In this document: one piece after another, positions 24,677-64,000 of the stretch
Position numbering within the stretch: position 1 is the stretch's first letter
How the letters are laid out: the number at the start of each line of letters is the position of its first letter
NCBI GenBank assembly: GCA_032718475.1
Contig: JAUCBJ010006844.1
Location: 1 to 64,000, forward strand
Direction of reading: 5' to 3'
From: Nemertoderma westbladi
Taxonomy: Eukaryota; Animalia; Xenacoelomorpha
DNA: 64,000 bases
Made by a program: the position numbers and the translations under genes
Notes under the pieces: model-generated
What the model was told of the DNA's origin: nothing
Seen by the model: only the letters and a program-made list of their open reading frames with translations
The model's database searches: none

Positions 24677-24994
24677 GCATTTTACTTGAGCATTTTATTT
24701 AGAATTATGGAACAATATTGCAGTGCATGGGTTACAACAGTGCAAGTGAATGGCATTATGTAGTCACCTTGGGTACCCATTTACCAGATTTATTATACTA
24801 GCTAGTTTTTGCTATTTTTTTAATAAATATTATAAAAGAAGTACTAGCTATAAATTTTGATAAATATTATAAATATTGTTAAATATTATATTAGAACACG
24901 TACTGTATAAGCTACCAAATGTTGATAAATATTGTTGTTCTAGAACATTTTTAGTAAAAAAAATTATCATACAACCCTTATTTAAAAAAATTGT

Positions 24995-40269: not shown

Positions 40270-43200
40270 TTATCGACCCGCTCCTGGGTTCTTTGGGCTC
40301 GCTCCTCTCTTCCGCCCCCTTCCCAGATACACTAATCGTCCTCTAGTCGACTCCGTTGACGGCGTCCGTGAGGCGTCACTCCCCGGAACCGGCGACGACG
40401 TTCCCTGAGCCCCGACAGATTCTCGGCTCGAACTTCTCCCTCGGCCTCGTCCCAATTGTCGCGCTCCCGTGGTCGCTTCCGCCAACTCTTCCTTCTGCAG
40501 TTGCACACGCGCTTTCTCAGACGCCCCCTGCGCCTTGCGCTGCAACCGTTGCGCTTCTATAATAGAGTGGTAGTGGTCGTCCTTGACTTGACGCTTGTCT
40601 TGGACCCCTCCTCCTGGTTCTTTCCGCGAGCCTTGAGCTCCAGCGGTCGTCGCTGTGGTCGCTGCGATCCTTTGTTCCTGTATCCTCTCGGCGGTCAATG
40701 AACCCACTGGCACATGAGTCAACAAGAATTCGTTGCGGTATTGTATAGCCGCCATCCTCCAATCACCTCGCGCGCGTACCACTTTTCTAGTCTCCGTAAA
40801 TACACCCTTCGTGATGCGATCGCAAATAGCAACGAAGTTCCATGTGTACTTATTGTCCATGTTCAATTGTCTGAAGTATTCTCGGACTACGATAACTCCA
40901 GTGTTCTGTGGAAGGTCTTGAGAAGTTAGGATGAGCTCCTGATATTGTGGTAGCGATTGAAGATATGGCTCGTACGCAACATGCGATGGGTCTACCGCCC
41001 AAAACCCATATCCCGCTTTAAATGGTAACCAACGCATCTGCGCTTGAATATGGTAATCCGCCACACTCTCCCACTTATCTAACATCTCCCGAAGTAGGTT
41101 AGCGCTATGGTTTTGAAAGGAATCATCTCGCAGCTGACATCTCGCGCTACGGTGTCCTTTTACTCCACAATATCCACATTGAGAAATGAAGACGGTGCAC
41201 GTGTGAAACGAATGGTCGGTCTCATTGCACCAACGACAGACCTTATGCGCCGCCTCTATTACCGCGTCGCACGACTTTAGATTGTGCCTTGTGCTGCCGC
41301 ACAATTTGCACCTACGCGCTTGTGGAAACCAGGCCCTCTCGTATATGAGGTCTCCAATCGGTTTCGCACTTCCTTCCTTCCCAATGTCTAATACGATGTC
41401 GTCCTCTCCGGTCAACGGTTGTCGATCCGGAACAAAGTAAACATCCTCGCCCTTGTCCTCTATCTCCAATATTTCCTCCCGCGTTCGTTTCGGATATGTC
41501 TTCTCCACCGGAAGATCTACTCCGAACACCTCTACTAAAGTCTCCGGCCAGCCCTCCTTAACAGGTCTATCAGCCTCCGAGTGGAAGGGAGTACCAAACC
41601 CGCGGGTTTGATTCCCGAACCACTTCTCCAAAGCTTCTGGCGTCGGATATTCCATCGACGGTCGGTCTCCCAAATCTCCGATGTTCTGTCGATATACTCC
41701 TTCGAATATCGCTAATCCTCTCCTCACCATCGACGTATTCTCTAACGACTGGTTGAAGAACGGGGTTAAGAAACGCTTCATCACGTCGGATTGGATTCCC
41801 CCTTTCGAGCGAACGTATTGATCTCCTCCGAATACCAATGGATGACGCTTCAAAACTCGCGCAACGATATCCGCTAATAAACAAGTCACCGTGTTCGACT
41901 CAAGCACCAAATAATATTGTAGCGACGCACGGGGTGGCGCGCAAATGTTCCAATACACTAACGCTTGCCGCTTGAAGTGGGATTTGAACTCCGCTCCCGG
42001 TGGCGTGTTGTATTCGCCATACGCCTCCTCGTACTTCTTTTGCGTCTTCAACTTAAAGTCCCAATTATACAACAAGTGTGCTATAAAGCCCATACCAGTC
42101 TTGGCAGAGTTGGGATACTCCCTATAAATTCCAATATCCTGTGCCCATAGCAACAATAGCTTGGTGTCGACAAACGGTCTCGGCAATCTATCTTCCAGAT
42201 CAGTCATGGCGTTGAAGTCGCTCTCCAAATCGCTCTGGACTCCCGATCCCACCTTGACGTAATCTTGGTTGAGAATAGCCTCTCTAACCTTCTTTGGGTA
42301 ACATCCTGGCGTCGATACGCTCCGCTCCGTGCATACCTCCTCGCCTGCATACCTCCAAAATCTGTTCCCTAGGATCCTTCCCCTTCCGATATTGTGTCGT
42401 TATGATGGGCTCCGGTCTCTCTCTATCCGCCCTCACAAGCATAAACACATGAGTCACACCATCGGCCGCACGAATTTGAATACACTTGCTGGTCAAACAT
42501 TCTTGATGGGACCCTCCTTCATTGTCGTAGAACATCACCCTCCAATCCTGCAGTGATTCCTCCGTTTTCCTCCACTGACGCTGAATCTCATCTGATGGGG
42601 TCCACATGCGCTCGATCGCCTTGTGGTCATCATATCGGGTATAAGAACCCTTCCTCCTCAGCCACGTCTGGTCTACCTCCTCGTCGTCTGGGAATGTAGC
42701 CACCGCGACCCATACCTTGATGTACTTATCCAACCATCCGAATAACTTACTCTCCTTCCCCGGAGCTCCAATCTTGTCCAAAGTGTCGTAATCTGTGATC
42801 TGCATTGGGACATCATGCAAGAACTTCGCGCATAAAACTTCCCGTAGACAGTCAACGTTCCAATGGTCCGCCATTCTTACCATCGGCAAGAATCGTATCG
42901 CTTCTCGCGACTCCGGATGATCTACTAATATCGCAGGTTCGGTACCGTCGGAATAATACACCGGTCCGGGTTGAGATACGACCTGTGGAACAAATCCGGT
43001 CACTCTCCTCGTCTCCTCTTGATGTCTATCCGCGGTCTTATTATACTCCGCTATCCTGTTCTCAAATAACTCCTTCGCCTTCGCCGCTCGCTCCTCCTGC
43101 CGCAACGCGTCTATGTCGTCCTGATGCTCAGGCGTGAGGCTTCTCACTCGGTGAGGTGAAGTAAACGCAGTCCAGGGACTCGAGAGCTCCAAACCCGCGG

Positions 43201-43978
43201 GTTTGGTACCCGAGTCCCGCGCCGCTTCGCGCCGCGCCTCTAGATCCTTGTAGGCTCGGTACAGCGAAATGGCCGCTGCCGTCTCTATCAAACTGGGTGT
43301 CGAACAGGGTTTAATCTCCGTATACGGATCTAATGTCGTAACGGTCGGCGTAATGGGTCTCGGAGGTCGCTTTCCGCTGAAGTCGATACTGATCATCGGG
43401 TTGCTCATCGGGTAACCTCCCTCGTTGTATCTAAGGAATTGGTGAGCTGGACATCGCGTTAATATCGGTTCCGGATGTTGCTCGTCTAGTCGGTCGGGAA
43501 TCGCCACGTCCTGTTTATTCATGCATTCACCACACTTGTAGAAGAGCTTGTATACGCTGAAGACTTTCGGCGTCTCCTGATCCTCGCCTCGAGTCCTCCG
43601 ATACAGGTGCATTCCGTCGAACTGGTCTCGGACTGCAGGTAGAGGCTCCTCGTGTCGTAAATACATATTCATATGGTATAGTCGTGCGATTTCCTCGTCC
43701 GGATCTGCGCTAATGTCGCACACGTCCAAAGCAAAGTCGTAGGGATACCGCGTGCGATACTCTCTCCGCAAGACTTCCATCCGGTCCCCCAACGCTCTCA
43801 TTCTTTCTCTCCGTAATTCTTTATCATAACTTGGTTTATACTTCCCGTTCGGCTCCATCACGGACCGCCCATGGTAGTAAACGTTAGAGTCTTTACATCC
43901 TGGTCGCGCGAATGGTAGCTCCGCCTCCTCTCTGGCAGTAAATCCTCTGCGCGGTTGCGCTCTAATATCCCTCTCCAT
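40270..43978 (-). CDS. Element C ORF3: 3'-5' exonuclease + three CCHC knuckles (~1235 aa if one extra base at ~42293 is removed)
   Basis: WRKTEESLQDWRVMFYDNEG; repaired LPKKVREAILNQDYVKVGSGVQSD; VDTKLL; TGMGFI; YLVLE; knuckles CKLCGSTRHNLKSC, CRWCNETDHSFHTC, CGYCGVKGHRSARC. Confidence 0.8.
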
Positions 43979-44733
43979 TATGTTACGCGTATATACATAT
44001 ATATATATCCCAATAAGTGCCGTTACGTAACCAACTACACTGTGGGTAAATCAGTTAGATGCCGCCGAAGGACAGACCTCCCGAACCCCCCCGCCTTCCA
44101 GCAGTTCAGGTTCGACTCTCTAGATCCCGTCTCTTCCTAACTAACTATCCTCTAACCTATTCCCATGCATAGCGCAAAACTTTGGAGATAAACTGGCCGT
44201 GACCAACTCACTTTTTGATGCCCAAACTACTCCCATTACTCCTACTAAACTACAGTAGTTAGAAAGGACCATAGCCACAATACTCGACTATACCAAACCC
44301 ACAGGTTTGATAATCGAACATCACACATCCTGCAAACTACTGAGTGGGGTCCATGTACGCCTCTGGTGCTACTAACCTTTAGCACCCTAGTTGCACTGTT
44401 GGCACCAATCTGTGGAAGTTGCTAAACTCAATTTACACTCCTACGTAATATAGCCGTCACCATGGTTTCTAAATGCTATTTTCCAGGCTTCACGACTTTT
44501 CAAATTACTGTTATCTATAGACGAATTCTAAAACGCGTCTATACCCAGCGTCTGGAATTGTCTTGGGTTCACTTCTAATTTTTAAAATTTTCTAATTTTC
44601 CAAAATTTTGAAAATAAAATTTTGTTTTGATACCCACCAGACAAAACTCAACGCAAATCACCACAACCCCGCTCCTATGCATTTCCTTGTATTTGCATAC
44701 GAGGAATGCATACGAAGTGAGTTGCGTCCAACA

Positions 44734-46173
44734 CTAATTCTGTTTTGAGGCAGGAGACAAATTATAATCTCCCGTCTCGATACGTGTCTCCTCTAATAAC
44801 ACAATATCTTGGACCGGTCGGTCCAAGGTGTGTAAACCATTAGTTTTACACTTTTTTGGGTGCGGACACTTGCACCTAATTTTCACAGTGACTGTGCGCA
44901 CTATGTTTTGCACGTCTGGGTGTGTGTGCAAGATCACTCCCGTCTCCCAATACTTTCTCTTGACAATGGGTTCGGTTATCAACACGTAATCTCCCCTTTG
45001 GAGACTCCGAACCGTTTTGTACCACTTTGTTCTGGTGGATATGGTGGGAAGATAGTATTCCCGCCAATATTCCCAGAATGTGTACGCCACTAACTGTGTT
45101 ACTTTCCAGCTCTTACGACTATATAGGTCGGCACTAATGGGTTCTGATGCCGGCACAAGAAATGCTGGACTCTGCATTAGCAAATGATTCGGCGTTAATG
45201 CAACACCGTCTGGCAACATAGCTATCGGCCTCGAGTTTAGGGTATGCTCGATTTCAATGAAAGCTCTGACCAGTTCGTCGTCGGTAAGTTGTTTGTTCAC
45301 AGGCAATGTTTTGGCAATGGCCTGTTTTACAGAGCGAACTAAACGCTCCCAACTTCCTCCTCTCCAAGGACTTTCTGGAGTATTAAATCTCCACTCTACT
45401 CGTTGCGGCAAAAGTGCTGCAGAAATTTCCTTATTCTGTGCTGCTTTATGAGCCGCGTTCAACTCGCTATTCCCTCCGACAAAGTTTGTACCCTTGTCAG
45501 AGTAGAACGCCTTTACTAGTCCTCTCCTGGCCATAAATCTCTTTAAGGCCAGGAGCAGAGATTTAGTCGACATGTCTGCCACACGCTCGATGTGTATGGC
45601 TCTACTCGCCATACATGTCAGTAGCAGACCCCATCGTTTGTGGGTCAGCCGTCCACTCTTTGCTTCAATCGGACCAAAACAGTCCACCCCTGTGTTCGTA
45701 AAGGGTGGGTCATATGCCTGCACTCTCGCTTCCGGGAGTTCAGCCATCTCCTGTTCCAATACTCTGGCGTTCACCCTCTTGCAAACCAGACAGGCGTCGT
45801 ACATAGTGCCGACTGCCCTGCTTGGCTGCAATAGAATGAATCGCTGTCTCGCTGCCGACAGACAGTGTAACTTTCCCGCGTGATGCAACCTCTTGTGTAT
45901 ATCCCATAGAATCGCTCTTTGCAATTCTATTGGGTGACTAGGGATTATCACTGGGAACCGAAACTGTGAGTTTATGTCGACAGTCTGGATTCTCGATCTA
46001 TGACAAATCAAACCCTTATGGATTAACGGACTCCATTTTCTAAGGGGTTTATAGAGAACTGGTCGTTGAGCCGATAATAGATGGAATTCTTTCGGGAAGG
46101 CACACATTTGATAATGCTTCAAATGCTTTAATTCCGCTTGATCAATCTCATCCTCTGTCAGAGGTTGTTTCAA
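44734..46173 (-). CDS. Integrase portion of element C pol (same frame as gag-pol, after one TGA)
   Basis: HKRLHH..CLVC; GVDCFGP; SDKGTNF; WERLV; LNSRP; TPNHLL. Confidence 0.92.
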   Translation of the reverse strand: MKQPLTEDEIDQAELKHLKHYQMCAFPKEFHLLSAQRPVLYKPLRKWSPLIHKGLICHRSRIQTVDINSQFRFPVIIPSHPIELQRAILWDIHKRLHHAGKLHCLSAARQRFILLQPSRAVGTMYDACLVCKRVNARVLEQEMAELPEARVQAYDPPFTNTGVDCFGPIEAKSGRLTHKRWGLLLTCMASRAIHIERVADMSTKSLLLALKRFMARRGLVKAFYSDKGTNFVGGNSELNAAHKAAQNKEISAALLPQRVEWRFNTPESPWRGGSWERLVRSVKQAIAKTLPVNKQLTDDELVRAFIEIEHTLNSRPIAMLPDGVALTPNHLLMQSPAFLVPASEPISADLYSRKSWKVTQLVAYTFWEYWREYYLPTISTRTKWYKTVRSLQRGDYVLITEPIVKRKYWETGVILHTHPDVQNIVRTVTVKIRCKCPHPKKCKTNGLHTLDRPVQDIVLLEETRIETGDYNLSPASKQN

Positions 46174-46182
46174 TTTCCGAAT

Positions 46183-49100
46183 TCACTCACTATTGGCGCT
46201 CGATGGTTCTCTCAAATGTTTCGAATGTTTTAAACAAAGGTACGAAACGTATCGGCTCAACCACGCAGTTCTTTTACAAATTGTCAGCCAAGAGGCAGAC
46301 GAATTTAGTAATTTGTCATAAACACTGCATGACTCTAATGCCAGCGACGGTTGTCCGCTAACCAATGGAAGTTTCGAATCCAAACCCGCAGGTTTGGAAA
46401 CCAAAGGCTCCATTGTGTCGGTCATTTTCTGTCCGTCACTTACCAATTGTGACTGTCGTCCAGTCTGTAAGGGTGGTTTTATGTCATAACTTACCCTTCC
46501 TGACCTAGTAGTCACGTAAGTCTGTTGGTCTGACAGGTCTCCGGGCCGCTCCAATAACTCTTCAGGCCGCTCCAATGACTCTTCAGGCCGCTCCAATGAC
46601 TTAAGTTTGGCTTTAGACTTTGACTTAGAGACTTTCTCCACTTTGACTTCTGCATCTTCAGGCATCGGATTGGTCACTATCTTTAGTCGCTCTGGCCAAT
46701 GTTCCTGTGTCCTCGTTAGAAAATTAGGTCCATGTAACCAAAACTCCTGCGACTCTTCCTGACAGAATTCCGCTGGCATTGCAACTCTCGAAGTTATGTC
46801 GGCCGGGTTCAACACTCCCGGACAATGTCTCCATTGTTCCTTCGTCGAAAAATCAACGATCTGAGCGCGTCTATTGGCCACAAATGTCTTTAGTGCAATA
46901 TTGTCGGCCGCAATGTATACTAACACCAAGGATGCGTCCGTCCAATAGAATAAGGTCAATGTCGTATCTAATTCCTCAGTTATCTGCTTACTTACCTCGA
47001 CTGAAACTACAGCCGCCTGTAACTCTGCACGAGGGACAGTCATGTATTTGACCGGCATTGTCTTTGATCTAGAAGTCACAAAGGCCGTCTCAAATTTGTC
47101 CTGACTTACCTCTCGGCGAAGGTAGGCTACCATACCAAAGCCGGTGTCACTTGCGTCACTGAACAGATGCAGCTCTAAATCAGTTGGAAATACCAGCTGA
47201 TTCGGAAAGTAGGAACGGGGTACATCTATATTTTTCAACAGATGCAACTCGGCTTCCCACTCCCTCCACTGCTTTGCATGTATAGGAGATATTGGTTCGT
47301 CCCACTCTAAGTCGGACAACCAAATTTTCCTCATGCACGCTCGTGCCTGTAATATAACCGGACTGATAAAGTTCATCGGGTCAAATAGTCTACTTAAAGT
47401 CGATAAGCAAATTCTCTTTGTCAAAACTTTGTCTGGGCTACTGGGCTCAAATCTAACTCTTACCTGGAACTTATCCGAATTCGGATTCCAAGCGAGTCCC
47501 AGTACTCGCGCCATGGGGATTGGTTCTACCCCCAATTCTATGTCTCCGCTCCCGCGATCTTTTACCGGGAACGATTCTAATAGGGCCTCCGAATTAGTAG
47601 TGAACTTGGTCAGAGGAAATCCCCCTGTAGCCAAGCACTCTTGCAGGCCGTGAGCCACTTCTATGGCTTGTTCCGCCGTGTCCTTGGACACCAATCCGTC
47701 GTCCATATAGAAGTTTCTCAAGATAGACTCGATTACTTCTACTGGATACTTACCAATCTGGGCTGTTGCCGTTTTCTTTAGAACGAACAGCGTGCCATTC
47801 GGACTATCGCGGGCGCCAAATATCCTAACGTACATTTGGTATATAACCACTGGGCCGGATAAGTCTTCATTCTCAAACCAGAGAAAGCGAAGGCTATCCT
47901 GGTCTGCCTTACAGGCTCTTACCTGGTGGAACATCGCCTCGATGTCACAAGTAAATGCGAATCGCCGCTGTCTAAAACGCAACAGTATTCCTATCAAATA
48001 GTTATTCAGGTTGGGACCATCCATCAACTCTGAATTCAGGGACATACCTCTATAGACTGCTGCGCAGTCGTTGACTACTCGGACTTTGTCAGGTTTGTCA
48101 GGGTGAGTCACATAGTGGTGTGGAAGGTAATAAGTCTGGTCTGTCACTAAGTCAGGGTCCTCTACCTTCCCAGCAAATCCCTTGGCGAAATAGTTGTTGA
48201 TCTGGGCGCAATACTTCTCCCTAATGTCTGGATTCTTCAACAACCGAGCCCTTACTCCGTTTAATCTTTTCAAGGCTAAGTTGTAGTTGTTCTCCAACTT
48301 AGGTGGTTGTCGACGCCACAACATTCCAACTTCAAAATGTCCAGTCGGTAGCAGACGTATGGTGTCTTCCATCATCTCCAACGACCGTTTTTCATCAGTA
48401 GACATGGCTAGGTCATATCCACCGGGTTCCATTGCGTCCCTATCCAGCCATTCGACGGTTCTGGCTCCTGTCTCGAGGTCCTGGCGTATCAATTCCTTCT
48501 GTAATTCCTCCTCACTGTATTGGAAAATGTCTAGGTCTCGATATTTAGCCACTTGACCCTCCACTATGTCTGTATAAGTCAAAACGTTAGTCAAATAAGT
48601 AGCGTGGGCCGCTGAACCAGACCCACGGGTCTGATAACAGTAGTCCTCGGGTTCACTATCTGTCCGGTCGTTATGAAGTGGTTCCGACAACCTAACATTA
48701 TCGGGAATCAACTCCTCGTCCGACTCGCTAAAGTCACTATAGTGGTCAATACAGGTTCTCCTAAACTCGTCTATGTCTGGTGGTTCTACTAACGGTGGTT
48801 GAGTTATAGGCTGTAATTCGTCGTATCTGTTCATTGGCTTGTCGCCACCTGTAAACTCATAAGACATAGGTACTCTTGTATACCAACCTAGTATGGTCCT
48901 ATGGGCATGTGGTCCATTGACATGCGGCTCAGCTGGTCTCGTTTCCCATATTTGGTGTGCGATCAGCTGTTCTGCACCAATCAACATAGAAACATTCCTA
49001 TAACCTACCTGGTGTCTTGGTACTCTGAGCTTGTCAAAATACTCCTGTGCTATGGGACTCATCGGCGGCACCTTACCTAACTGCCTGCCGAATCCCTTCA

Positions 49101-52100
49101 TAGCTAGACACTTAAATCCGTCCAATGGCAAAGCTTTCCGTTCTTGTCGAGTGTGTTGGTCTCTCGGAAGTAGGGAATCTAGTTCTACCGAAATTCTGTG
49201 TCCCTTGAGGTCTCCTACCCCGTGCATAGACTTCAACTCTATTTGGATCTCCTCGGCGTCCTGGAAGCTAGAAACGGCTCTCGCCACTTCCTCGTCGATA
49301 TACGATAATGTGGACGCAGTGTCCAACATCACATATATTCGCTTTGATCCCTTATCGCCAGTAAGTTTCACCGGAATCACGCTAAATATTTCCGACGTGG
49401 CCGATGATAAATACGTCCGTGCGCTGGTCGATGAACTATCCGCGGTGAAACCTTGGCAGGTCACTTCTCTCGCGCTCGACTCGCCATCCTCGTCCGACGA
49501 ACCTGGTTGGTAACCATCGTCCTGAATGCCGGTATACGTATTCCTCCTTATCGATACGGGTTCTTTGCTCCCCTTCCTTTGAGGATTTCGCTGTAAGTAA
49601 CGGTCCGTCGGGGTGTGGAAATCCGCATGTAGCAACTTGTGATGTAGTCTGCCGCATTCCATGCATCCGTCCTTGCTGTTCGGGCACTGCCGCCGTACAT
49701 GACCTGGCGCAAGACATGCCCAACAGGTGTCCAACGTCCGCACTTGAACTCTTCTCTGTTCCGAATTTAATTCTTTGAACCGTCTGCAACTATCTAACTT
49801 ATGGTCGTCAGATCTTACCTCCTTTAGTAAACAGTATTGGCAACCTACAAATCCATCCGGCAACTCCTGTTGCTTTAACCTAGGTCTATCTAACCGCTCA
49901 CCTGACCATACTCGCGAGTCTGATCTAAAGGCTGGGGTACTCGAATTATATCTGTCTACTGAGTTAAATGTCACAGTGGTCCTGTCATCGTCAAAACTTA
50001 CCATAGACTTACCGGTAACAGGTTTAGACTCCCTCATATTCTCTTCTGAGAAGTTTGATTTCATCTCTGCTACTGCGTCTGTGGCTATCATGTCATGAAT
50101 ATGCTGAAGTGTCAATACTTTACCTTGGCCCTCCAACTTATTCTCTAATTTACGCCATTTCTGTCGATAACGCATGTTTAAACGTCTTATTACGCTTTTC
50201 AAAACTTCGGCGTGATCACCATGATGAGGTAGATTCACCGTCCTCAAGATGTCCAATGCGTTCGAAATAGCGTTCGCTAAGTTCAACAGCTCTAACGGAG
50301 TTGTAATCCTTCCGCCCTTACCCAAGTCTTCTACTATCGACTGCGCCATCTTCGTTTTATTCCCGTAGATGTCACTAAGCGTCTTCATCGCTAACTCGAA
50401 TGCCCTTTCATTGCCGACGAAGTTATCAGCAATGGCTCTAGGTTCTCGATGGAGCATCTGAAGCAAATAGTTGAACTTCTCGTTGGGAGTAAAGGTGCTG
50501 TTGGTTAGCTGCTCGTCGACATAGGTTTTGAAGGTCCTCCAGTGCTTGTGGTTGCCCATAAACTTCTGGGGTTGTTGCGTCGGCAGTCCTTGCCTAGCAG
50601 CAAACTTACCTATGTCCCTAAGGGTTGCGTCGTTCCGGGTTAACAAATGGTTTAGTTCCGCAGGGTTGTTAAGTCTGGTCCTTTCCCGGTGGTTCCAACT
50701 TACCTGCTCCGCGTCGGTCCTTCTTTCCTTATAGTTTCGGGACTTCTGACGTCTCATGTCTTCCTCTTCATCACTCGATTCTGTGTCAGTCCTTAGCACT
50801 CGCGATGGTTTGCGCGCTGAGGCCCTGACCCAAGCGTCCTGAATAAATTTCTCGGCCGAATTTTCGAAATTGGGATTAGAGATGTTCGGGACAGGCGTCC
50901 TTACCTGAGGTCTATGTGGTATAGTCTCCTCCGATATGCGTACTCGTTGACTAGGCTGGACTTTATCTAACTCAGGCCTGCTAGGATTTGAATTACTTCT
51001 TACCTGGGCTGCTTCCTTTAACCGTAGGTTGCTAAGCATGTCCGTTATAGGTTGGATGTGCGGCGATATAGCTTGCGCTAAACTAGCACTTAACTCATCC
51101 CTCGTAATAAATTCCTGGCTAGGGTTCTGTTGTATAGTCGGCTCTATCTGAGTAATCCGCTGTCTCTCATATGATCCCTCTTCCGGTTTAACCCGGAAGT
51201 TCTCCGTCGAACTGGGTCGGCGCTCCGTCCGCGTATTCCAAACCCGCGGGTTCGGTTCGCCCAATACTCGGCCCGTCGGAGTTTCTTCTCTAAATTCTTC
51301 GTTGTCGCGTTCGGTGTATAGTGGTGCGGTGTTCTGATGCCGTGGATTCTGCGCGATAGGTGAAGCACTAATACCAACTGGCGTGCGATATGTAGAGAAT
51401 GGTTTAGCGATCCGTGTACTCGTAATAGCTGGACCGGGTATAGGAATTCTGGTCGTCGTCGACTCGCGTATGGTCGGAGTTCTCGCTTCCTGTTCGGCCT
51501 TCTGCAGTGCGAACAGTTCTCGCAACTCTGTCCCTACACTCGCCCCACATTCTTCGATCATTCGCATCCCCTTCTCGGCGATTTCGTTCGCCTTCCTAGT
51601 CCGTTCTTCGCTCTCTAAACTTAATCTCGCACTTTCCAACTGCGCCAGTTTACGCTCTTCTTCTTCCCTCGCTCGTCTCGCTGCGCTCTCTTCTTCCACT
51701 CGCGCCTTTTCTTCATACAATGCGCGTCTTCTTTTCTCGATCTCGAGTTCGCGTTCCTTGCGTCCGCGTTCGAGTTGAAGCTCGCGCTCCTTCTGTTCAC
51801 GATCGAGTTTCTTGCGCTCGCGTTCGGCTTGGAGTTCGCGTTTCTTCGCTTCCTGTTCGCGTTCGAGTTGGAGTTCGCGTTTCTTCGCTTCCCGTTCGCA
51901 TTCAAGTTGGAGTTCGCGTTTCTTCGCTTCCCGTTCGCGTTCTCTCTGTTCGCGTTCGAGTTCCTCGCGCTCGCGCTCGGCTTGGAGTTCACGTTCCCTT
52001 TGCTCGCGTTCCGCTCGCTCGCGCTTACTTATCTCTTCCAACTCTCGTAACTCTGCGTCCAACTTACGTGTGCGCTCCCGTTCCCGCTCGGCTTCCTTCC

Positions 52101-53172
52101 GTGCTTCCTGTGCACGCAAAACTTCCGCCTGCTGTTCGTCTAGTCGGCGTCTTCTCTCCTCCGCCGAGTTGTGAGAAACAAGGGATCTAGCACATATTAC
52201 CTTACCTCGCGCGTGACTAACCTGGGAATCGCCGCTGTCTCTAGATGCGTCGTCGGGTGGAGTCAACGTCCTCTGTTGAATGTTCTCCGTCGTCGGTAGC
52301 ACCTGGCCTGGTACCACCACTCCATTCTGCATCAGCCAGCTAGTAACTTCCCTCTGATAACGGCGCTCTTCCTTATCTTGGATCTCTTCTCGCTCCACTA
52401 ACTCTCTCAACTCTGCGTCACTCACTTGAGTCGCCTGCGCTTGTGATGCCCATAGCAGCCAGTTCTCCGTCCTAACTCGTCGGAATCGCTCCGATAACTC
52501 GCGGTGCTCCAACAAGGCTGCTAAAACCCTGTCGTAAATCCTCGTCGCCACGTCGCTCGACTGAGACTCTACTGCCTTCTTCGCTAGGACTGCAAGCTCC
52601 TCCGTCTGCTTGAATAACGCTGAGTTATATCCTCTTCTAATCTCTACTAACTCTACCCTCCCGATGTTCGCTGGGTCAGCTAACATCTTCCTTACCTTGT
52701 CCGCCGTCCGGGTTATATGTCCGGCATGCGCGCGAAGTTTCTTCTTTATCGCGATATCGAACTCTCTATCACTCACCTGACTTACGCTCGGTGGACTTGA
52801 AGGATTATTTCGGGAACTACGGGTACTCCTAACAGCCGTCGGGACCACGGCACTTACCATACCCACAGGTCTGGAAACCGGGCTCCGGGCTCTCGCTTCT
52901 GCTACACTACCCTCCCTATCACTCACCTCTGTCCGGGCTGCTGTACAGTCCTTCCTTACAGTAGCGGTAGGGGATCCTAATACTATTACTTGAGGTTGTT
53001 GTTCTTCCTCACTAGTCACTGTCTCGTCCTCCTGTTCACTTACGTCAGCGTCGCTCGCTGCGTCGTCATAGTCGGCATTGTCATCAACAGTAATGTTTAC
53101 GCTATCGTCAGTCGGCGGTCCAGCCGCCGTCTCGTAGCTGTCCTCTAGTGCCTCCTTGTCTGAGACACTCAT
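46183..53172 (-). CDS. Element C Gag-PR-RT-RNase H polyprotein, 2329 aa
   Basis: Coiled-coil gag; knuckles CQYC..H..C, CWACLAPGHVRRQC, CMECGRLHHKLLH; MLDTAS; FTCDIEAMF; FYMDDG; FSDAS, ELQAA, WTDA. Confidence 0.95.
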   Translation of the reverse strand: MSVSDKEALEDSYETAAGPPTDDSVNITVDDNADYDDAASDADVSEQEDETVTSEEEQQPQVIVLGSPTATVRKDCTAARTEVSDREGSVAEARARSPVSRPVGMVSAVVPTAVRSTRSSRNNPSSPPSVSQVSDREFDIAIKKKLRAHAGHITRTADKVRKMLADPANIGRVELVEIRRGYNSALFKQTEELAVLAKKAVESQSSDVATRIYDRVLAALLEHRELSERFRRVRTENWLLWASQAQATQVSDAELRELVEREEIQDKEERRYQREVTSWLMQNGVVVPGQVLPTTENIQQRTLTPPDDASRDSGDSQVSHARGKVICARSLVSHNSAEERRRRLDEQQAEVLRAQEARKEAERERERTRKLDAELRELEEISKRERAEREQRERELQAEREREELEREQREREREAKKRELQLECEREAKKRELQLEREQEAKKRELQAERERKKLDREQKERELQLERGRKERELEIEKRRRALYEEKARVEEESAARRAREEEERKLAQLESARLSLESEERTRKANEIAEKGMRMIEECGASVGTELRELFALQKAEQEARTPTIRESTTTRIPIPGPAITSTRIAKPFSTYRTPVGISASPIAQNPRHQNTAPLYTERDNEEFREETPTGRVLGEPNPRVWNTRTERRPSSTENFRVKPEEGSYERQRITQIEPTIQQNPSQEFITRDELSASLAQAISPHIQPITDMLSNLRLKEAAQVRSNSNPSRPELDKVQPSQRVRISEETIPHRPQVRTPVPNISNPNFENSAEKFIQDAWVRASARKPSRVLRTDTESSDEEEDMRRQKSRNYKERRTDAEQVSWNHRERTRLNNPAELNHLLTRNDATLRDIGKFAARQGLPTQQPQKFMGNHKHWRTFKTYVDEQLTNSTFTPNEKFNYLLQMLHREPRAIADNFVGNERAFELAMKTLSDIYGNKTKMAQSIVEDLGKGGRITTPLELLNLANAISNALDILRTVNLPHHGDHAEVLKSVIRRLNMRYRQKWRKLENKLEGQGKVLTLQHIHDMIATDAVAEMKSNFSEENMRESKPVTGKSMVSFDDDRTTVTFNSVDRYNSSTPAFRSDSRVWSGERLDRPRLKQQELPDGFVGCQYCLLKEVRSDDHKLDSCRRFKELNSEQRRVQVRTLDTCWACLAPGHVRRQCPNSKDGCMECGRLHHKLLHADFHTPTDRYLQRNPQRKGSKEPVSIRRNTYTGIQDDGYQPGSSDEDGESSAREVTCQGFTADSSSTSARTYLSSATSEIFSVIPVKLTGDKGSKRIYVMLDTASTLSYIDEEVARAVSSFQDAEEIQIELKSMHGVGDLKGHRISVELDSLLPRDQHTRQERKALPLDGFKCLAMKGFGRQLGKVPPMSPIAQEYFDKLRVPRHQVGYRNVSMLIGAEQLIAHQIWETRPAEPHVNGPHAHRTILGWYTRVPMSYEFTGGDKPMNRYDELQPITQPPLVEPPDIDEFRRTCIDHYSDFSESDEELIPDNVRLSEPLHNDRTDSEPEDYCYQTRGSGSAAHATYLTNVLTYTDIVEGQVAKYRDLDIFQYSEEELQKELIRQDLETGARTVEWLDRDAMEPGGYDLAMSTDEKRSLEMMEDTIRLLPTGHFEVGMLWRRQPPKLENNYNLALKRLNGVRARLLKNPDIREKYCAQINNYFAKGFAGKVEDPDLVTDQTYYLPHHYVTHPDKPDKVRVVNDCAAVYRGMSLNSELMDGPNLNNYLIGILLRFRQRRFAFTCDIEAMFHQVRACKADQDSLRFLWFENEDLSGPVVIYQMYVRIFGARDSPNGTLFVLKKTATAQIGKYPVEVIESILRNFYMDDGLVSKDTAEQAIEVAHGLQECLATGGFPLTKFTTNSEALLESFPVKDRGSGDIELGVEPIPMARVLGLAWNPNSDKFQVRVRFEPSSPDKVLTKRICLSTLSRLFDPMNFISPVILQARACMRKIWLSDLEWDEPISPIHAKQWREWEAELHLLKNIDVPRSYFPNQLVFPTDLELHLFSDASDTGFGMVAYLRREVSQDKFETAFVTSRSKTMPVKYMTVPRAELQAAVVSVEVSKQITEELDTTLTLFYWTDASLVLVYIAADNIALKTFVANRRAQIVDFSTKEQWRHCPGVLNPADITSRVAMPAEFCQEESQEFWLHGPNFLTRTQEHWPERLKIVTNPMPEDAEVKVEKVSKSKSKAKLKSLERPEESLERPEELLERPGDLSDQQTYVTTRSGRVSYDIKPPLQTGRQSQLVSDGQKMTDTMEPLVSKPAGLDSKLPLVSGQPSLALESCSVYDKLLNSSASWLTICKRTAWLSRYVSYLCLKHSKHLREPSSANSE

Positions 53173-54447
53173 AGTCTAAATAATGTTTGCCTTCCGGCAA
53201 AATATCTCGCAAAAGTTCGAGATATAATTATAATTTAACCGAAATACGGTCAAATTATTTGTCAAATAATCAGTTGGTCCAAATGTCAAAAATAAATTCG
53301 CAATGCAATATTGTGAATTTAATGGGGTATATAGTTATAGCAAATACTAACACAATATTTAAACAAAATATTATTATATAGCTACTATATAATATTAAAT
53401 ACCGGTATAGCACAAAATAACTTTTGAATCTAATACAAAATATTCAAAATAAACTTGCCACCCGAATATTTCTAATTTTATATATAGCTCTAATCAACGT
53501 AATTTTAATTTCAAATATTATATGTATCCACTAGCGCGTGGCTACATCTTCGGGTTGCGACTCTCTCTAACTCTCTCTCTAACTTGAGCGATTCAAAAAA
53601 CCATGGCCGGCTAAACCTAAATATCCTAACTAATAAATTGAGTTCAGCTTCGCAGTTAAACAACCGGTAATTTTTTACTGCTTCCACAAACACAGTGGTG
53701 CCAACAGAACAACTAACCTTGTTTGCTGTGAGATTCCACGTCCGCGTCCAAAGATTCAGGCCCTTCGCTGATTGCAAACCGAACCCGCAGACCCACACGA
53801 ACCCCAAACTCAGAAGTTCCGTCTTGCCATGTATCTCCAGATGGTATAAAATAACTAAGCGGTTACCTAACATACCGGTACAAAACTCTAGAATTTTACA
53901 AAATAATTTTGACCGAAAACTGAATTCTCGCAAACCTAGCTAAAATTTTCAAAAAACTTACTAATTACTGTTTGCCCTAAGGCCTAAGGAACTGCTGTAT
54001 TCGCAATTAGCAAAACGCACTACCGTACATCCACTGTATGCAGTACAGTAAGTAAAACAGTACACCAACCTAACAGCCTAATGATACTGTGTGTGGTACG
54101 GCAAACAAATGTCCCTTCTACCGTACGCAGTAACAACAATCAGCCTAATGTACTACTGTACTATTGTACGCAGCCAGTGAATACAGTAATCTAAACTAAC
54201 AGCCTAAAAGAATATACTCAATGTTCTACCGTACGCTAGCCTATAGCCTACAGCAGACGATCACGTGCTCTAACTTATTACTTAATACTGTGATACTACT
54301 ATCAGCCTAAGAATACTATATTGACCGCTGCAAGCAACAGCCAATAACGCGTATTACTGATACGAAGTATCAGTAATCTAAACTAACAGCCTAAGAATAC
54401 TCTATTTACTGTACGCTACAGCCTACAGCAAACAGTGCGCGTATTAC

Positions 54448-56626
54448 TGATAAACAACCGCGACCTCTATACTAACAGCAGAACTGTTGAACAGACCAAT
54501 ACCCGTTAATATCCTTCTGCCAACCTAATAAGTTCTTGTCTAACCAATAAGACACAAAGACTGCTCTACTGTTAAGTAAAGGGGCTCAGGAGCGTGATAT
54601 TACTAAATTGTAAGGGTTGCTAAATACAAAACCGCTACTTACCGTTAGATGGCGCTAATCTGCCGTCCACTAATATATTTTACTAATTTTACACAACTCC
54701 TGCAAAATCGCTTGTTCCTTTCTCTACCGATTGCTCAATAGAGAGCTAACTGTTCGAATCTATGAGCCACGCGGGAATAACCAAAACAATAAACCCGAGT
54801 CGGCTCCCTAAGCTTACTTAAGACGAGTGCGAGAGGCCTTGCACTCAGAGTATTCTTACGCCTAATTTTATCACTATTAAAGCACGCTATTACCTACGTC
54901 TTTCTAATCGCGAATACTGGAGGTTCCCTAACGTAATGTGTGAATGCGAGAATATTTAAAATATCAAAATGGTACAGTATCTGTTTCTACGTGGATAATA
55001 CCACTCCGAGTCTAAAACTGCCCGCGACTGGCTTTAGGCCAGCAAAATTACTAGCGTATCGTGCGTACCGAATAGTGCGTTCTAGCTGATTGCCCGCTAA
55101 TGCAAATAACCGCTCAGCGTGAATAGTTTACAGTACACTAATTATTACCTTAGCTACTCTCCGCTATGCTGCGTACTAATTCTTAATTTTTTACTAATTA
55201 ATTACAGTCACAAATATTTAACAGCGTACTAATTACTAAGAGTTCCAGAATACGTAATTCTAATTTATCACGCAACAGGTTTCGCTAGTAATAGCCTAAA
55301 TTGCCGTATTACTTTGACCTAATCAATAACTAATTATTGTAACTAAGAAATAGAAATCAATCAAAGGAAAAAGAGCGCCTATCTAAGCATTCGTAATCTT
55401 AGGCACACTTCAATAACACACCAATCAGCGTTAGAAATCACAGTTTACAATTGTGCAATTCACTACTCGTACTCCACACTCAACGTTTTAATACGCGCAG
55501 GCCTCTCCCGGGTACATCTAGGATTCCTAACTAACCCAATTCCTGCCCCCCTAATACTAAATAGAGACAAAACCTGGATCATCAGCCCCCTAGATACTGT
55601 ACCGGCGATCGGTCTGCGTGCCGCAGTGCAAGATACCCGCCCGCAACGGTGACCCTGGCCAGCGTTGCCCGCTTTGAATCCTCCGCTCTCTCCTAGTCGC
55701 TCAACCCCCCGATGCGCCCACCGCCCACTGGCACCTTAGCCCTCCATGATGCTAATAGCTACCGTAGCGGCGCATGCAAATCACAAAGTCTGACAGTCTC
55801 AGGAATCCCTTGGGATTATTGCGCAGAAAAGAATCACATAGAACCATCAATCAAAGGTAGAAATCATAGTTCGATTGTAATTTGCAGTAATCGAAGGAAT
55901 TATTGAGAAACACAAGCAAAGTAATCGCACTAGCAAATCATTCCAAGAAATTAATCAAAATTAGCAAATTGCAGAAAATACGATATCCTAATACAAAATT
56001 AGAGACAGCTCAGCAAGTAAATTGTAACAGGGGTGTGTCATGTGATAAGGCATGAACATATGAACAAATATATGAACAACAATATGAACAACAAAAGGTC
56101 CTACCGGCACACCGCCAATTTATAGGTGATCCGGATGGGGTGATGCAATAAGGTGACTCAATCGCTCTCCCATTGGCTCTCCAGTCCATGCTAGCATTAA
56201 ACCAACCTGGAAGCAGTTAATCCAATAAGGAGACCGGATTGTAGCCCTATGCCCTCAAATTATTACCATATATGGTAATGGATCACGTCTCTGGCTGCTG
56301 AATGGCCAGGACAGCGTCCCTATATGCTAGCCCTATCAAACTAATATCAGCAAGCACAAAATCCAGGGTCCGAGTAAACTCGCTACCCTGGAACTATCTA
56401 CATATATCCTAATACAAAATTACGTAGGTAGGGCTACATACTATACAAAATGAATGGATGCAAAATATATGGGCGTTTTAACTTCCTTACCTAAATGTCA
56501 CCACACTGCGCCTTATCTAAATAATTATACTGCACAACAGACTAATATTACGTACAGTATAACGGACTAATACTGCATACTGCATAATGGACTAATACTG
56601 TGGATACAGCGCCATATACCGTAACA
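54448..56626 (-). repeat. 5' LTR of element C
   Basis: 2179-bp near-identical copy of 37601-39779; TATAAAT on minus at ~56118-56124 is a candidate TATA box. Confidence 0.97.
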
Positions 56627-57350
56627 AAAGGAGATTTCGGTATACCAACAAACTATCGTGGGATCTGTCTGCTTGTGGTAATTGCAAAAATATACAACAA
56701 CAATGATTCTATATAGGATTAGGCCTCACATAGCAGCAGAAACTACTGCGTAAGAGCCAAAACCGATTTCGACCAAGTAGATCAACAATAGCTCAGATAC
56801 TTGCACTACGGAGAATGAATGAGGGACTTAAATCAAACGATCTCCCCAGTCCTGAAATTTGTGGACTTTAAGAAATCATTGGACTCCATCCATAGAGGTA
56901 AAATGATGGGAATCCTATGACCTTATGGAATACCATAAATAATTGTCGCTGGCATATGATTGTTATATTGTGACACAGAATCTCAGGTACTCTCACTAGA
57001 TGTTGAAACAGGGTTCTTCTCAATCCTGGCGGGTGTACTGCAATGTAACATATTGGTGCCATTACTATTTGTAATTGTACTGGATTATGCAATGAGGATG
57101 GAAATAAATGGTGAAGATCTGGGATTCACACAACAAGAATGTAGAAGTAGCAGATATCCGGCAACTACAGTCAACCGACTTCGCAGATGACATCATACCA
57201 CTCTATAATAATGCAGGATTGCATATGAATGCTACTACGATCAAATTAATAACTTTTAATGTTGATGGAAACTTGACAAAAATCGATAATAATCAACTAA
57301 GGAAGGTCAACGATTTCCAGTACCTTGAGTGATGGATAGAGAGTAGCAAA
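56627..57350 (+). pseudogene. Decayed RTE-like RT fragment, split by element C (left stub 37584-37600)
   Basis: Joining across the TSD reads PVSKKGDFGIPTNYRGICLL; later GVLQ..LVPLLF, DFADD, FQYL. Confidence 0.85.
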
Positions 57351-59989: not shown

Positions 59990-62900
59990 TAGGGTGGATC
60001 GAATTTTGCCAAAGTTGGAAATCAAAGAATGGCTAGTGCTAAAAAGTGGCACATGGGCTTAAGAACTATGCATGCAAAATATTTTTTAATTTGGTTAAGT
60101 CCTTGCTCCCCCCCAAAGCCTCTGAATTTTGATAAAGATAGGCGCGATAAGGTGGTAGTAAATCGGCTAGACTATATGAAGGTTATGGCACTTGTAGTCA
60201 CTCCCTTGAGCTCACTTTGGGCTCATTCAAAGCGCATTGGTCGATTTAGTTATTCAATATTTCGTTTCTGGGCATGGCAGCCACTATTTTCCTCACTCTG
60301 CTCATTTTTGTGCTTTTGGATGTATAAAATAAATATATTCATATATTCCACTTCTATATTGTGGCAAATTGAAAGTATTATATTTGTATTACAATTGTTC
60401 CATTCAGGCAATCGTGTAATGAATTCAGGCAGTACCAGTATAGGAGTGTTGAGGCCCAGCACTGTTCATTGTTGGATTATTACTACCGTATGTCAGTAGT
60501 GTATGGTATGATTTCCCTGTTCAGTATTGGATTACTACAACTACAGTCAGACTGTCTGTAGACAATGTCAGTAGCGTAGGGTATGGTTGCCCTGTTCATT
60601 GTTGCATTACTACAGTCAGACAGTCTGTAGACAATGTCAGTATAGTAGTTTAGGGTAGACTTATTGTGAATTAGTAAACAGTAATGCCTGATGCAGTTTT
60701 ACTCAATGTTAGGCATATTGAGAGAAGTGGGTACTATCAGACAGTAGATTCAGGGCTGTAGGTCAATGGTACTTTCATAGGTAAGAAGTATGGAGATAGT
60801 AGTGTCACTGTCATGTCAATAGGCCTACATTACCCAATGTACTAATGTTTCTGTACTCTGTACTAGTCTAGTCTTTTAGTGATGGCACTTCTTAGAACAC
60901 AAACAGCCTGCCCAGTAATTGGAGCACCTGCTGATCTCCCAACAACATGTTTGCCAACCCATGGCGACGTTTTGAGGTACTATCAGTACATAAGGAAATT
61001 GGATACAACGACTGGAGTTACAAAAACAATGCCATCATTGGATATATATAAAATGGTCGCTGGTCAATTAGAGAAACTGTGGACTAGAGCATCATTACCT
61101 TACAACTCCCATAAGAGGATTGTGGACAAGCTTCTTGCTTACCATGCAAATTACATAAAGATTCTCAAGCATGTTGATAGAAAGCAACAGCTTGCTAAGT
61201 TTAGACAACATGCAGATTCAACACTCTTTGATATAACAACGTGTAAATGTAAAGACTTTTTGACATGCTCTTGCGCCAGAGAACTTAGAGTGCCAGAAGA
61301 AGAACAGTCGTTTTTGTTAGACCAACGTGGCGACCGTCAAATGATGATAGCAGGTGTTGATGTACCACTAACTAATCAAATTGAACAGAAGCGCAAGCGA
61401 AAACTCTCTAGACAACTTCAATTTGTCCCACATCAGGTCTCTCCAATTGTGAATTCAGTAACTGATGTTGATTATACTTCTTCAGATGATGATGCTGAAT
61501 CAAAGGCTCCCATGGTTGAGTATGATCCAATACCATCAACTTCATGGTCGGATGTTAGTTGTAGGCCTGATTCTGAAAGTGCTGTCCAACAATCTGTTCA
61601 CCAAATGAGACGTGAATTACCAACATTATCCCGTGAATGCGATAGACATGGGGTATCTGATAGAGCTGCTGCATCTATTGCTACAGCAGTGTTGCAGGAT
61701 TTTGGAATTGTACACACTGAGGATACTACTAGTGTCATTGACCGAATGAAAATTCGGCGTGAGAGAGAGAAACAGCGAAATATAGAAATTAACACACCTG
61801 ACACTGATCTCTATGGATTATATTTTGATGGTCGCAAAGATTTAACCATAATGCAGGAGATGATTGGTAACAAATATTACTATCGGACTGCAAAAGAAGA
61901 ACATATATCATTATTATCAGAGCCTGGCTCTACTTATATTGGCCATATCACTCCAGATGGTGGGGATGCAGTTAGTATCTCTGTAGCAATAAGTAAATAT
62001 CTTCTGGAGAGAGATATTGCAACTGAAAAGTTGGTGGCTGTGGGGTCAGATGGGACTGCAGTTAATACTGGTCATCTTGGAGGCATTATTAGGTTATTGG
62101 AAGTTACTTATGGTCGTCCATTGCAGTGGTTTATATGCCAACTACATTTAAATGAACTTCCACTACGACATATTCTGGTTCACCTGGATGGAGTCACTTC
62201 AGGGCCAAAATCATTTACTGGTGTAATTGGCAAGTCATTGGCATTTGTTAGTCTACCTGACCTGGTCTCCTTTAAACCCATTCCAGCACCAAACCTACCA
62301 GTTGTTCCTGCTAAAGTCAGACATGACCTCAGTGATGATCAGCGATATTTGTATGATATGTGTATTGCCATACAGTCTGGTGTTTGCTCTTCAGATCTTG
62401 CAAAGAAGCTTCCAGTAGATGATTGGTAACAAATATTACTATCGGACTTCCAGGAGATGATTGGTAACAAATATTACTATCGGACTGCAAAAGAAGAACA
62501 TATATCATTATTATCAGAGCCTGGCTCTGCTTATATTGGCCATATCACTCCAGATGGTGGGGATGCAGTTAGTATCTCTGTAGCAATAAGTAAATATCTT
62601 CTGGAGAGAGATATTGCAACTGAAAAGTTGGTGGCTGTGGGGTCAGATGGGACTGCAGTTAATACTGGTCATCTTGGAGGCATTATTAGGTTATTGGAAG
62701 TTACTTATGGTCGTCCATTGCAGTGGTTTATATGCCAACTACATTTAAATGAACTTCCACTACGACATATTCTGGTTCACCTGGATGGAGTCACTTCAGG
62801 GCCAAAATCATTTACTGGTGTAATTGGCAAGTCATTGGCATTTGTTAGTCTACCTGACCTGGTCTCCTTTAAACCCATTCCAGCACCAAACCTACCAGTT

Positions 62901-64000
62901 GTTCCTGCTAAAGTCAGACATGACCTCAGTGATGATCAGCGATATTTGTATGATATGTGTATTGCCATACAGTCTGGTGTTTGCTCTTCAGATCTTGCAA
63001 AGAAGCTTCCAGGACCACTGTCACATTCCAGGTGGTTAACTCTTGGATGTCGTATACTTCGGCTTTATGTATCTTGTAAAGATCCTCACCCGAATCTGGT
63101 TACTCTTACTTCTTACATCCTAAATGCTTATGCACCAATATGGTTCAATATAAAGTGTCAGTGGGAATGCATCTTTGGACCTAAACATCTGCTTTGCCTT
63201 ATACAGTACACCAGATACCTGTCAACTGATTTGCGGGACATTGTAGACACTACTATACAACGGAATGCCTTCTTTGCACATGAAGAAAACGTTCTTCTGT
63301 CTATGTTGTTTGACGAGGATAAGGGAATACAACAACTGGCCTTAAGGAGAATATTAAAGTACAGGTCTTTAGAAGTATCTTCAGCAGAATGTGTCAGGTC
63401 ATTCAGAGTCCCAGTAATAAACTTTAGTTCCGTAGATTACTACGATTTAATTGACTGGACCACAGCCAAGTATGAACCCCCACTTACAAAGCACATACCA
63501 ACTGATTTAATTCGCAATAGTTTAGAAGGAACTGCTGATATAGACTTTCCATTTCCACGGTTTGCTTGCCACACACAAGCTGTAGAGAGGATTGTTAAAC
63601 TTGTCACTGAGGTTTCAGTGGCCGTGTGTGGATTTACAAGACGAGATGGAGCAATTCGCAACAAGCTGAGATCTTACTCTAAGATGAAGAGCTTCGAAAG
63701 CAAGAAAGACTACACGGTCTAATCTAATATACTTTAACTGTGCTCTCTGACAGATACCACACAAACCTACTGTATATACTAGAATATTTACTTTGGGTTT
63801 TAAACAAACATTGATATTATAATACTTTAGTTAACTCTTAAATATGTTTCCCTATTTAGTTTATATAAAGGGATTGAAACATGAAATATTCAACAAACAA
63901 TTAACATATTAACAAATTTTTTATACCTTGGAATTTCAACAGCAAATCATGCTTATCATTCATTCTACCCCATGTAAATCGACCATTATGATTTAAAAGA
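59990..64000 (+). mobile_element. hATm-like DNA transposon; right terminus beyond the window
   Basis: Left end TAGGGTGGATCG and a transposase with YFDGRKD, EEHISL..EPGS.YIGH, SDGTAVNTG, ICQLHLNELPLRH, CHTQAVER. The hATm label is from memory of the family's termini and motifs. Confidence 0.7.
60879..63722 (+). pseudogene. Transposase disrupted by a 597-bp internal duplication (about 748 aa when removed)
   Basis: 61854-62415 is repeated at 62451-63012; both ORF halves are in the same frame with a stop in the junction insert. Confidence 0.88.

Follow-up and report, generated by a model that had tools for sequence, protein, structure and literature searches.

How does a long terminal repeat (LTR) retrotransposon start reverse transcription when the position next to its 5′ LTR carries no recognizable site for a transfer RNA (tRNA)? 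The question is raised by element C, an insertion in a stretch of 64,000 nucleotides (nt) from Nemertoderma westbladi (GenBank assembly GCA_032718475.1, contig JAUCBJ010006844.1, positions 1 to 64,000 of the forward strand), hereafter the window. Judged by its Pol, element C is a BEL/Pao element, but a variant rather than a typical member of the group. ICTV, the international committee on virus taxonomy, calls BEL/Pao replication poorly understood and host-tRNA primed, and gives the Belpaoviridae an 18-nt primer-binding site (PBS) for tRNA-Arg or tRNA-Gly, LTRs of 0.2–1.2 kb and genomes of 4.2–10 kb (PMC8742986). From the features set out below, we consider it very probable that element C primes reverse transcription with its own RNA. 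Self-priming is favoured because it is the sole reading to cover co-varying sites at the PBS and in the LTR, the lack of a tRNA site and the recurrence of this layout in another family, represented in the window by element B.

The PBS position of element C and its complement

Element C lies on the minus strand, and its 5′ LTR (56626 to 54448; 2,179 bp) is 99.9% identical to its 3′ LTR (37601–39779, minus strand). Self-comparison of the window gives one such direct repeat, with two differences over 2,179 bp. Near-identical LTRs, TG...CA ends and a flanking 5-bp target duplication (56627–56631 and 37596–37600) identify element C as a young insertion of 19,026 bp. Its 5′ LTR terminates ...TTTATCA, and the next letters are G-TAATACGCGCA. 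An earlier note on this DNA, made from the sequence alone, had reported that no TGG follows the LTR end and that 11 nt of the PBS position (54436–54446) have an exact complement inside the LTR (55489–55499), with its 3′ end pointing into the unique 5′ region (U5). Both statements hold. The first TGG lies 105 nt downstream of the LTR end, and by sequence match bases 2–12 of the PBS position (54436–54447, minus strand) are exactly complementary to positions 1128–1138 of the 2,179-nt LTR. The candidate self-primer segment (55488–55499, minus strand) matches over 11 nt here and over 12 nt in most copies, and its 3′ end faces U5. TAATACGCGCA is found on the plus strand solely at 55489 and in the 3′ LTR copy of the segment (38641–38652, minus strand; 11-mer at 38642), and its complement solely at 54436.

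For words beginning 0–3 nt past the LTR end, the longest LTR complement is 11 nt; a complement of at least 11 nt arose in 14 of 5000 dinucleotide shuffles of the LTR. The note had cautioned that other inverted matches between LTR and leader exist (54392 with 54848), and this caveat is real: three of 1268 leader 11-mers are complementary to the LTR, namely the PBS and two overlapping words of that match. Because another leader word also matches the LTR, with a complement of 12 nt, the weight of the PBS match rests on its position. Strong structure (z −3 to −5) is predicted for the leader where it adjoins the PBS. Within it (54348–54377, minus strand), a second copy of the LTR end plus PBS (15 nt, 54362–54348) overlaps the 3′ arm of an 11-bp hairpin (54377–54353).

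Other sources of a primer within the element were considered and rejected. ARAGORN found no tRNA gene within the 64-kb window, and Rfam gave no match in element C and four weak ones elsewhere in the window, which led us to discard an element-encoded tRNA or known ribozyme. A primer formed at a splice junction was discarded too, the PBS match being contiguous and needing no splicing; a scan of exon junctions gave two 12-nt matches in element C, with weak donors, and none in element B.

Matched variation among related copies and a second family

Related copies were available as public short contigs of sequencing runs, six of the seven listed runs containing part of element C. Contigs of X1, X3, X4 and X5 were aligned to 53900–56700 and those of X1, X2, X3 and X5 to 55484–55570; X4 contigs gave no cover at the PBS or the LTR segment. 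X1 and X2 derive from a single sample, and the window itself may stem from one of the runs. Counts of contig variants given here are those among the rows listed. The expectation that the LTR segment would repeat the PBS types was recorded before the LTR-site contigs were examined.

The base at 55488 differs from that of the window copy in 31664 of 31706 (X1) and 27417 of 27417 (X3) of contig depth. This usual base complements PBS position 1, which extends the match to 12 nt and sets it flush with the LTR end; the earlier description of a match 1 nt from the LTR end fits the window copy and fails for most of the contig depth. Six of the 12 listed rows with letters between concern the PBS, five of them joining leader 54346/7 to 54440–54446. 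We take them to be true LTR–PBS junctions because the shorter side, where given, is 21–26 nt and exceeds the 15-nt leader repeat. The junction rows yield four PBS types besides that of the window. At the other site, 10 of the 18 listed loose-end rows fall at the LTR segment; all 10 are in register and identical in the two bases that face PBS positions 1–2. The sequence immediately downstream of the segment is hypervariable among contigs.

The check for covariation of PBS and LTR segment that the earlier note had proposed gave a positive answer: for each of the four non-window PBS types there is an LTR type that pairs without mismatch, using one G-U pair at most. Three of them require three or five compensatory changes, and against the window-type LTR they would have two mismatches plus one to four G-U pairs. 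One LTR type shares changes at PBS positions 5, 6 and 8 with a PBS type (X1 and X3), while another, from a single X3 contig, carries changes at positions 5–9 as in two PBS types, each with one additional G-U pair. The remaining PBS type needs a single G-U to pair with the window-type segment. Divergent types have a PBS–LTR match of 10 nt. By a hand estimate, a random three-change or five-change variant would match at about 1/1500 or 1/14000 per try, odds that transition bias could raise perhaps tenfold. Relatives further afield did not extend the comparison: 19 metagenome loci (33–44% identical) gave no complete 5′ LTR end for comparing the PBS, and among viral contigs no useful relatives were found.

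Element B provides a separate test of the layout because its pol is 32–40% identical to that of element C and the LTRs of the two do not align. It lies on the plus strand, with a 3′ LTR of 1,521 bp (16696–18216), the left end of which is set by a TG after a G-run and not by a second full copy, and a 5′ LTR remnant that comprises the last 143 nt (5500–5642). There is no TGG within 70 nt of the LTR end. Bases 3–14 of its PBS position (5643–5656, plus strand) complement a 12-nt candidate self-primer segment in its own LTR (17990–18001, plus strand), 215 nt from the LTR end. A match of at least 12 nt was obtained in two of 5000 shuffles, and cross-family and wrong-strand controls gave matches of 4–8 nt only. 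Among 427 leader 12-mers of element B, an LTR complement exists only for the PBS and its second copy (5683–5694), which overlaps the 3′ arm of a 12-bp hairpin (5661–5687; the whole feature 5661–5694, plus strand). B and C alike repeat the PBS in their leaders, within the 3′ arm of an 11–12 bp hairpin; this repeat may represent a switch, a decoy or a by-product of strand transfer. The proposal of tRNA-independent self-priming made in the earlier note is supported by the matched variation in related copies and by this second occurrence of the layout.

Some observations weigh against self-priming. Variants of the PBS and of the LTR come from different short contigs (those listed at the segment are approximately 60–270 nt), so that the pairing is one of sets and not of molecules. 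Three LTR-site types (four rows, one further base differing) are without an exact PBS partner among the rows listed, and the window copy mismatches at PBS position 1, yet inserted recently. Alternatives that dispense with self-priming have difficulties of their own. The pairing could be structural, serving in packaging or dimerization or keeping the PBS shut, with another RNA as the primer; the further LTR–leader inverted matches, the structured leader and the second PBS copy in a hairpin would suit such a role. But in two unrelated families the match falls precisely where a primer would sit, its 3′ end toward U5, a fixed host primer is incompatible with five PBS sequences in one family, and we regard this alternative as very improbable. 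A host half-tRNA or small RNA would make the LTR match incidental, and half-tRNA priming without TGG is known in Copia lineages (PMC6317226). This explanation leaves the compensatory LTR variation and the second family unaccounted for, no tRNA-like gene was found in the window, and its likelihood seems to us slight. A chance match is close to negligible as an explanation: another 12-nt leader word does complement the LTR and a genome scan covers many elements, but p is approximately 0.003 and 0.0004 in the two families, and the variants had been predicted beforehand.

Position of the segment in the transcript and origin of the primer end

If the element does prime itself, the next question is how the segment acquires a 3′ OH, and this depends on where the transcript begins. 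The sole CCAAT (56176) and the sole TATAAA (56124) of the element C LTR form a candidate promoter (56119–56176, minus strand) approximately 600 nt upstream of the segment. Each LTR has only one TATA word. It lies upstream of the segment, at a distance of 625 nt in C and of 1,115 nt in B (at 16875), and a CCAAT word lies near each TATA in one or other orientation. Conservation of element C falls off past the promoter block, contig joints beginning at 56097–56102. Nearer the segment, and at a fixed distance from it in variant contigs, is a conserved block (55500–55606, minus strand) with features of putative function: a predicted 3′ splice acceptor at 55557, a branch-point-like word (55585–55581) and a sense-strand hairpin. 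Acceptor and donor words were scored with a simple consensus. On this scale, 55557, 58 nt upstream of the segment, is the best of 98 YAG words in the LTR, and it is the sole acceptor-like word there with a tract of at least 10 pyrimidines plus CTRAY; variant contigs retain its terminal TAG and CTRAY, while the length of the T-tract varies. From these signals the segment seems to be internal to the transcript, unlike the situation in Tf1.

The hairpin (55606–55508) has a z of −3.6 in the sense orientation, against −0.1 for the opposite strand, and was kept as a weak candidate for a processing signal, since 12 of 106 sense windows fall below −2.5 and two variant bases break predicted pairs. A pairing of a TATA-like word at 55563 and an initiator at 55532 was rejected, since variant contigs do not retain it. 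Two GGGCGG words stand in a GC-rich stretch that precedes the conserved block. On the 3′ side, element B has ATTAAA at 18048, 47 nt downstream of the segment and ahead of CA and a T-run, and element C has no poly(A) hexamer close downstream of the segment save one made by the variant base of this copy. The 5′ LTR remnant of element B starts at the equivalent of 18074, that is, after ATTAAA (18048), approximately 20 nt and CA, and this point is the predicted start of U5. The duplex between segment and PBS is predicted, with core pairs at 0.9–1.0, in folds ending at 54400 and starting at 55499 or 55532.

The case for an internal segment is weakened by several points. Element B is without a good acceptor near its segment, and neither LTR has AATAAA. 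With the leader extended to 54300, or with a start at 56095, the duplex probability drops to 0.0. In both B and C, and in all types listed, the last 9 nt of the segment begin at a pyrimidine–purine step; such a step resembles the initiator consensus and therefore favours a Tf1-like 5′ end at the segment. All aligned records are contigs; the promoter words point to a start far upstream, and the initiator-like step to one at the segment.

Several further features of the LTR and leader of element C are recorded here. Within U5, 54642–54569 (minus strand) is intron-like: no donor word in the LTR scores higher than the one at 54642, and the acceptor at 54569 is rich in pyrimidines; a further donor word is found at 55148. 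The upstream part of the LTR (56451–56272) has strong predicted hairpins on both strands (z down to −6.3) and an 18-nt palindrome near 56270, and the LTR holds traces of an old repeat of approximately 421–426 nt. An X5 contig end at 54138, on the strand opposite to the element, resembles a cDNA template-switch adapter; it was not used as evidence, and may mark an antisense transcript in the leader.

Both elements also encode an accessory protein that bears on the question of the primer end. In element C, ORF3 (open reading frame 3; 42284–44050, minus strand) has an N-terminal part of 490 aa of unknown kind and a tail with a first exonuclease motif (YDNEG, common to B). ORF4 (40270–42399, minus strand), in a different frame, holds the remaining DEDDy-like exonuclease, three CCHC knuckles and an RG-rich tail. 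The exonuclease is thus split over two frames near 42284–42399, and the earlier note, which had placed it in ORF3, was right about the first motif only. In element B, the exonuclease and CCHC knuckles occupy one open frame (13885–16521, plus strand), and the domain is 26% identical to that of C. A DEDDy layout comprises four acidic residues plus a tyrosine across three motifs. The D-x-E, D and Y residues are present in B and C, although the first motif of B aligned poorly. At the last acidic position, B, C, P0122 and P0128 have E, whereas five others have D. The P numbers denote proteins from a HMMER search with ORF4 of element C, which gave eight (P0121–P0128; 514–727 aa) from other assemblies, all unnamed or ‘hypothetical’; homologue searches with ORF3 and with the element B exonuclease ORF gave none. 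A profile of nine sequences finds CCHC knuckle proteins, EXD2 (E 8e-6) and, at a weak level, Egalitarian, while a Pfam exonuclease match appears only at E 0.2 in one of 10 proteins. The structural model of the element B exonuclease is weak (mean predicted local distance difference test score, pLDDT, 60), and its best fold match has E 2.4e-3, with none reaching 0.001. The first ten matches are EXD2, Egalitarian and EXD1, and Nibbler and RNase D are also among the top matches. The accessory domain is likely a DEDDy-type 3′–5′ exonuclease fold combined with knuckles. For the first 490 aa of ORF3 (42600–43978, minus strand) there was no Pfam match and no homologue was found; this part holds a Cys/His cluster.

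Of the possible routes to a primer 3′ OH we tentatively place first, at slightly below an even chance, cleavage of the 5′ copy of R, the repeat region of the transcript, on the 3′ side of the duplex. Transcription would begin upstream, at a TATA/CCAAT promoter 0.6 kb (C) or 1.1 kb (B) away, leaving the segment internal to R. The segment would loop onto the PBS across approximately 1,040 nt (C) or 215 nt (B), and RNase H would cut just 3′ of the duplex, as in Tf1, to give a primer with a long 5′ tail. Reverse transcriptase (RT) would copy U5 back to the cut and then jump via the R sequence remaining downstream, which would amount to approximately 70 nt in B if ATTAAA at 18048 is used. Plus-strand synthesis would copy the primer into the new PBS, such that the sites stay matched while both drift, and the exonuclease would clean up ends left unpaired or serve at some other point. 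That a primer which is not removed is copied into the PBS of the next copy has reportedly been described for Tf1. The 5′-side cut is preferred because it uses known chemistry, leaves R for strand transfer in B and makes the inheritance of an upstream intron simplest: a retained intron upstream of the primer would fit because that 5′ part would at no time be copied.

We rank the capped end of a Tf1-type transcript next and exonuclease trimming last, an order held with the same reserve as the preference for the 5′-side cut. In the Tf1-type case, the transcript would begin at the segment itself (55496–55499 in C, 17993 in B) and RNase H would remove its first 9–12 bases. The fixed distance to the conserved upstream block, the GC-rich stretch with its GGGCGG words, the pyrimidine–purine step that all listed types and B have 9 nt before the 3′ end, the agreement in length with Tf1 (11 nt) and the duplex predicted from a start at 55499 all speak for it. 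Against these, element C has no TATA at −30, the TATA-like word at 55563 being lost in variants; the sole TATA/CCAAT pairs lie far upstream in both B and C; and the acceptor-like and hairpin features suggest transcription of the upstream DNA, although the 3′ LTR copy could be where they act. A start at the segment therefore looks unlikely. Trimming, the route that the earlier note had raised, is, if anything, a shade less likely again. Here the segment would lie near the end of R in the 3′ LTR, and the exonuclease would remove poly(A) and the variable tail down to the duplex. B and C would then exemplify a giant BEL/Pao lineage in which a knuckle exonuclease trims the RNA to a 10–12 bp PBS duplex, closing a loop on itself without a tRNA or an RNase H cut, which we likewise think improbable. 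An exonuclease/knuckle ORF is present in both families with the match (2/2), and the profile (EXD2) and top fold matches (EXD2, Egalitarian, EXD1, Nibbler, RNase D) would suit this role. The ATTAAA 47 nt downstream of the B segment and the hypervariable sequence downstream of the C segment would fit, and neither the terminal mismatch of this copy nor the offsets of the match (0–1 in C, 2 in B) would hinder trimming. But no fold match reached E 0.001 with a weak model, the last acidic position of this candidate exonuclease is E in B and C, and element C lacks a nearby downstream poly(A) hexamer except the one that depends on a copy-specific base. A spliced intron in the 5′ R would, we infer, vanish from the progeny. 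The DEDDy ORFs of rotifer LTR and Penelope-like elements carry no stated link to priming in PMC5408684. For any primer internal to the transcript, a processing step unlike that of Tf1 would be needed.

Comparison with known systems and other features of the window

The assignment of element C to BEL/Pao follows from its domains. A gag-pol ORF through RNase H (46183–53175, minus strand; DUF1759 and Peptidase_A17) is separated by an in-frame stop (46183–46185) from the integrase part in the same frame (44734–46182, minus strand; Integrase_H2C2 and DUF5641). The Pfam matches (PF03564, PF05380, PF17921 and PF18701) are those of a Pao-type Gag/Pol with the integrase after RT/RNase H. PF05380 is present in all of the best 120 listed homologues, and the best of 1,145 homologues has 43% identity. 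A short, weak purine-rich stretch, read from the sequence, occupies the polypurine tract position (39780–39788, minus strand). With the Belpaoviridae, element C shares the order of Gag, RT/RNase H and integrase, the TG...CA LTRs and the target duplication, but it differs from the family profile in its length (19.0 kb), its 2.2-kb LTRs and the lack of a tRNA-type PBS.

Self-priming itself has precedents. It has been shown for Tf1 (Ty3/gypsy), where 11 nt are involved and RNase H makes the cut (PMC7175516), proposed for Tj1 (PMC4600332) and predicted from complementarity for the chromovirus Tcn1 and the Copia elements TAR, Houba and Osr-1 (PMC6317226). As in Tf1/Tf2, Tj1 and the Tf1/sushi group, the PBS of element C lies by the 5′ LTR and complements approximately 11 nt of its own LTR, with no tRNA and with the 3′ end toward U5. 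Unlike the Tf1/sushi elements, C has a Pao-type Pol and not that of Ty3/gypsy (chromovirus), the segment of B and C lies 1.1–1.3 kb into an LTR of 1.5–2.2 kb and probably not at a capped 5′ end, and C has a loop of approximately 1 kb, a PBS that drifts among subfamilies and an accessory exonuclease ORF. Elements B and C thus likely use their own RNA as Tf1 does, yet stand outside the Tf1/sushi group. The predictions for TAR/Houba/Osr-1 and Tcn1 likewise come from complementarity, and concern other superfamilies in plant or fungal hosts.

The exonuclease has a parallel in Juno and Vesta, LTR elements of bdelloid rotifers, which carry an RNase D-like DEDDy ORF3 after pol with a suggested role in 3′-end processing (PMC5408684). 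That source contains no ‘PBS’ or ‘tRNA’ and does not tie the DEDDy ORF to priming. The domain described here resembles it but is joined to three CCHC knuckles and belongs to BEL/Pao. In the BEL/Pao survey PMC3118150, the terms PBS, primer, tRNA and exonuclease do not occur. No report of self-priming in BEL/Pao was found in the literature searched, with most subscription papers and preprint supplements outside the search. Two BEL/Pao elements of Caenorhabditis elegans are of interest in this respect: Cer7 is said to have its own tRNA-like primer sequence, which may lower the novelty of self-priming, and Cer13 reportedly has an RNase D-like exonuclease domain. By comparison with Cer7, in element C no tRNA-like gene was found and the match is an LTR segment of 10–12 nt.

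If self-priming is correct, tRNA-independent priming would exist in all three LTR superfamilies, which bears on whether it is ancestral or of repeated origin; an argument that tRNA priming came late has been made in PMC3601003. Such elements would be freed from the host tRNA supply and from defences directed at a fixed PBS, with the PBS drifting among subfamilies. LTR finders that require a tRNA PBS would miss them or label them defective. Self-priming would also supply a first concrete, testable role for the DEDDy ORFs of retrotransposons.

The rest of the window has features apart from priming. The element B LTR remnant at 5500 abuts the pol of a third BEL/Pao element (A), which is 45–57% identical to C. 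The LTR of element B contains, at 16998–17830, five 87-nt repeats with CTTCGG tetraloop-like hairpins, arranged in units of approximately 218 and 95 nt, for which Rfam gave no match. At 18784–21764 (minus strand) lies a non-LTR retrotransposon that is broken and has domains of a PHD finger, an endonuclease and an RT. At 35789–37102 (minus strand), 500 bp past the 3′ LTR of element C, with which it shares its direction, is a 437-aa frame resembling the major facilitator superfamily transporter SLC18B1, which speaks for an animal host. Two consecutive in-frame ORFs (520 and 430 aa) at 60867–63722 have an internal 562-bp duplication (99.8% identical) and no Pfam match, and by their sequence look like a DNA-transposon transposase. 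Finally, two inverted arrays of 15/17-bp units at 24466–25469 resemble the subterminal arrays of foldback elements.

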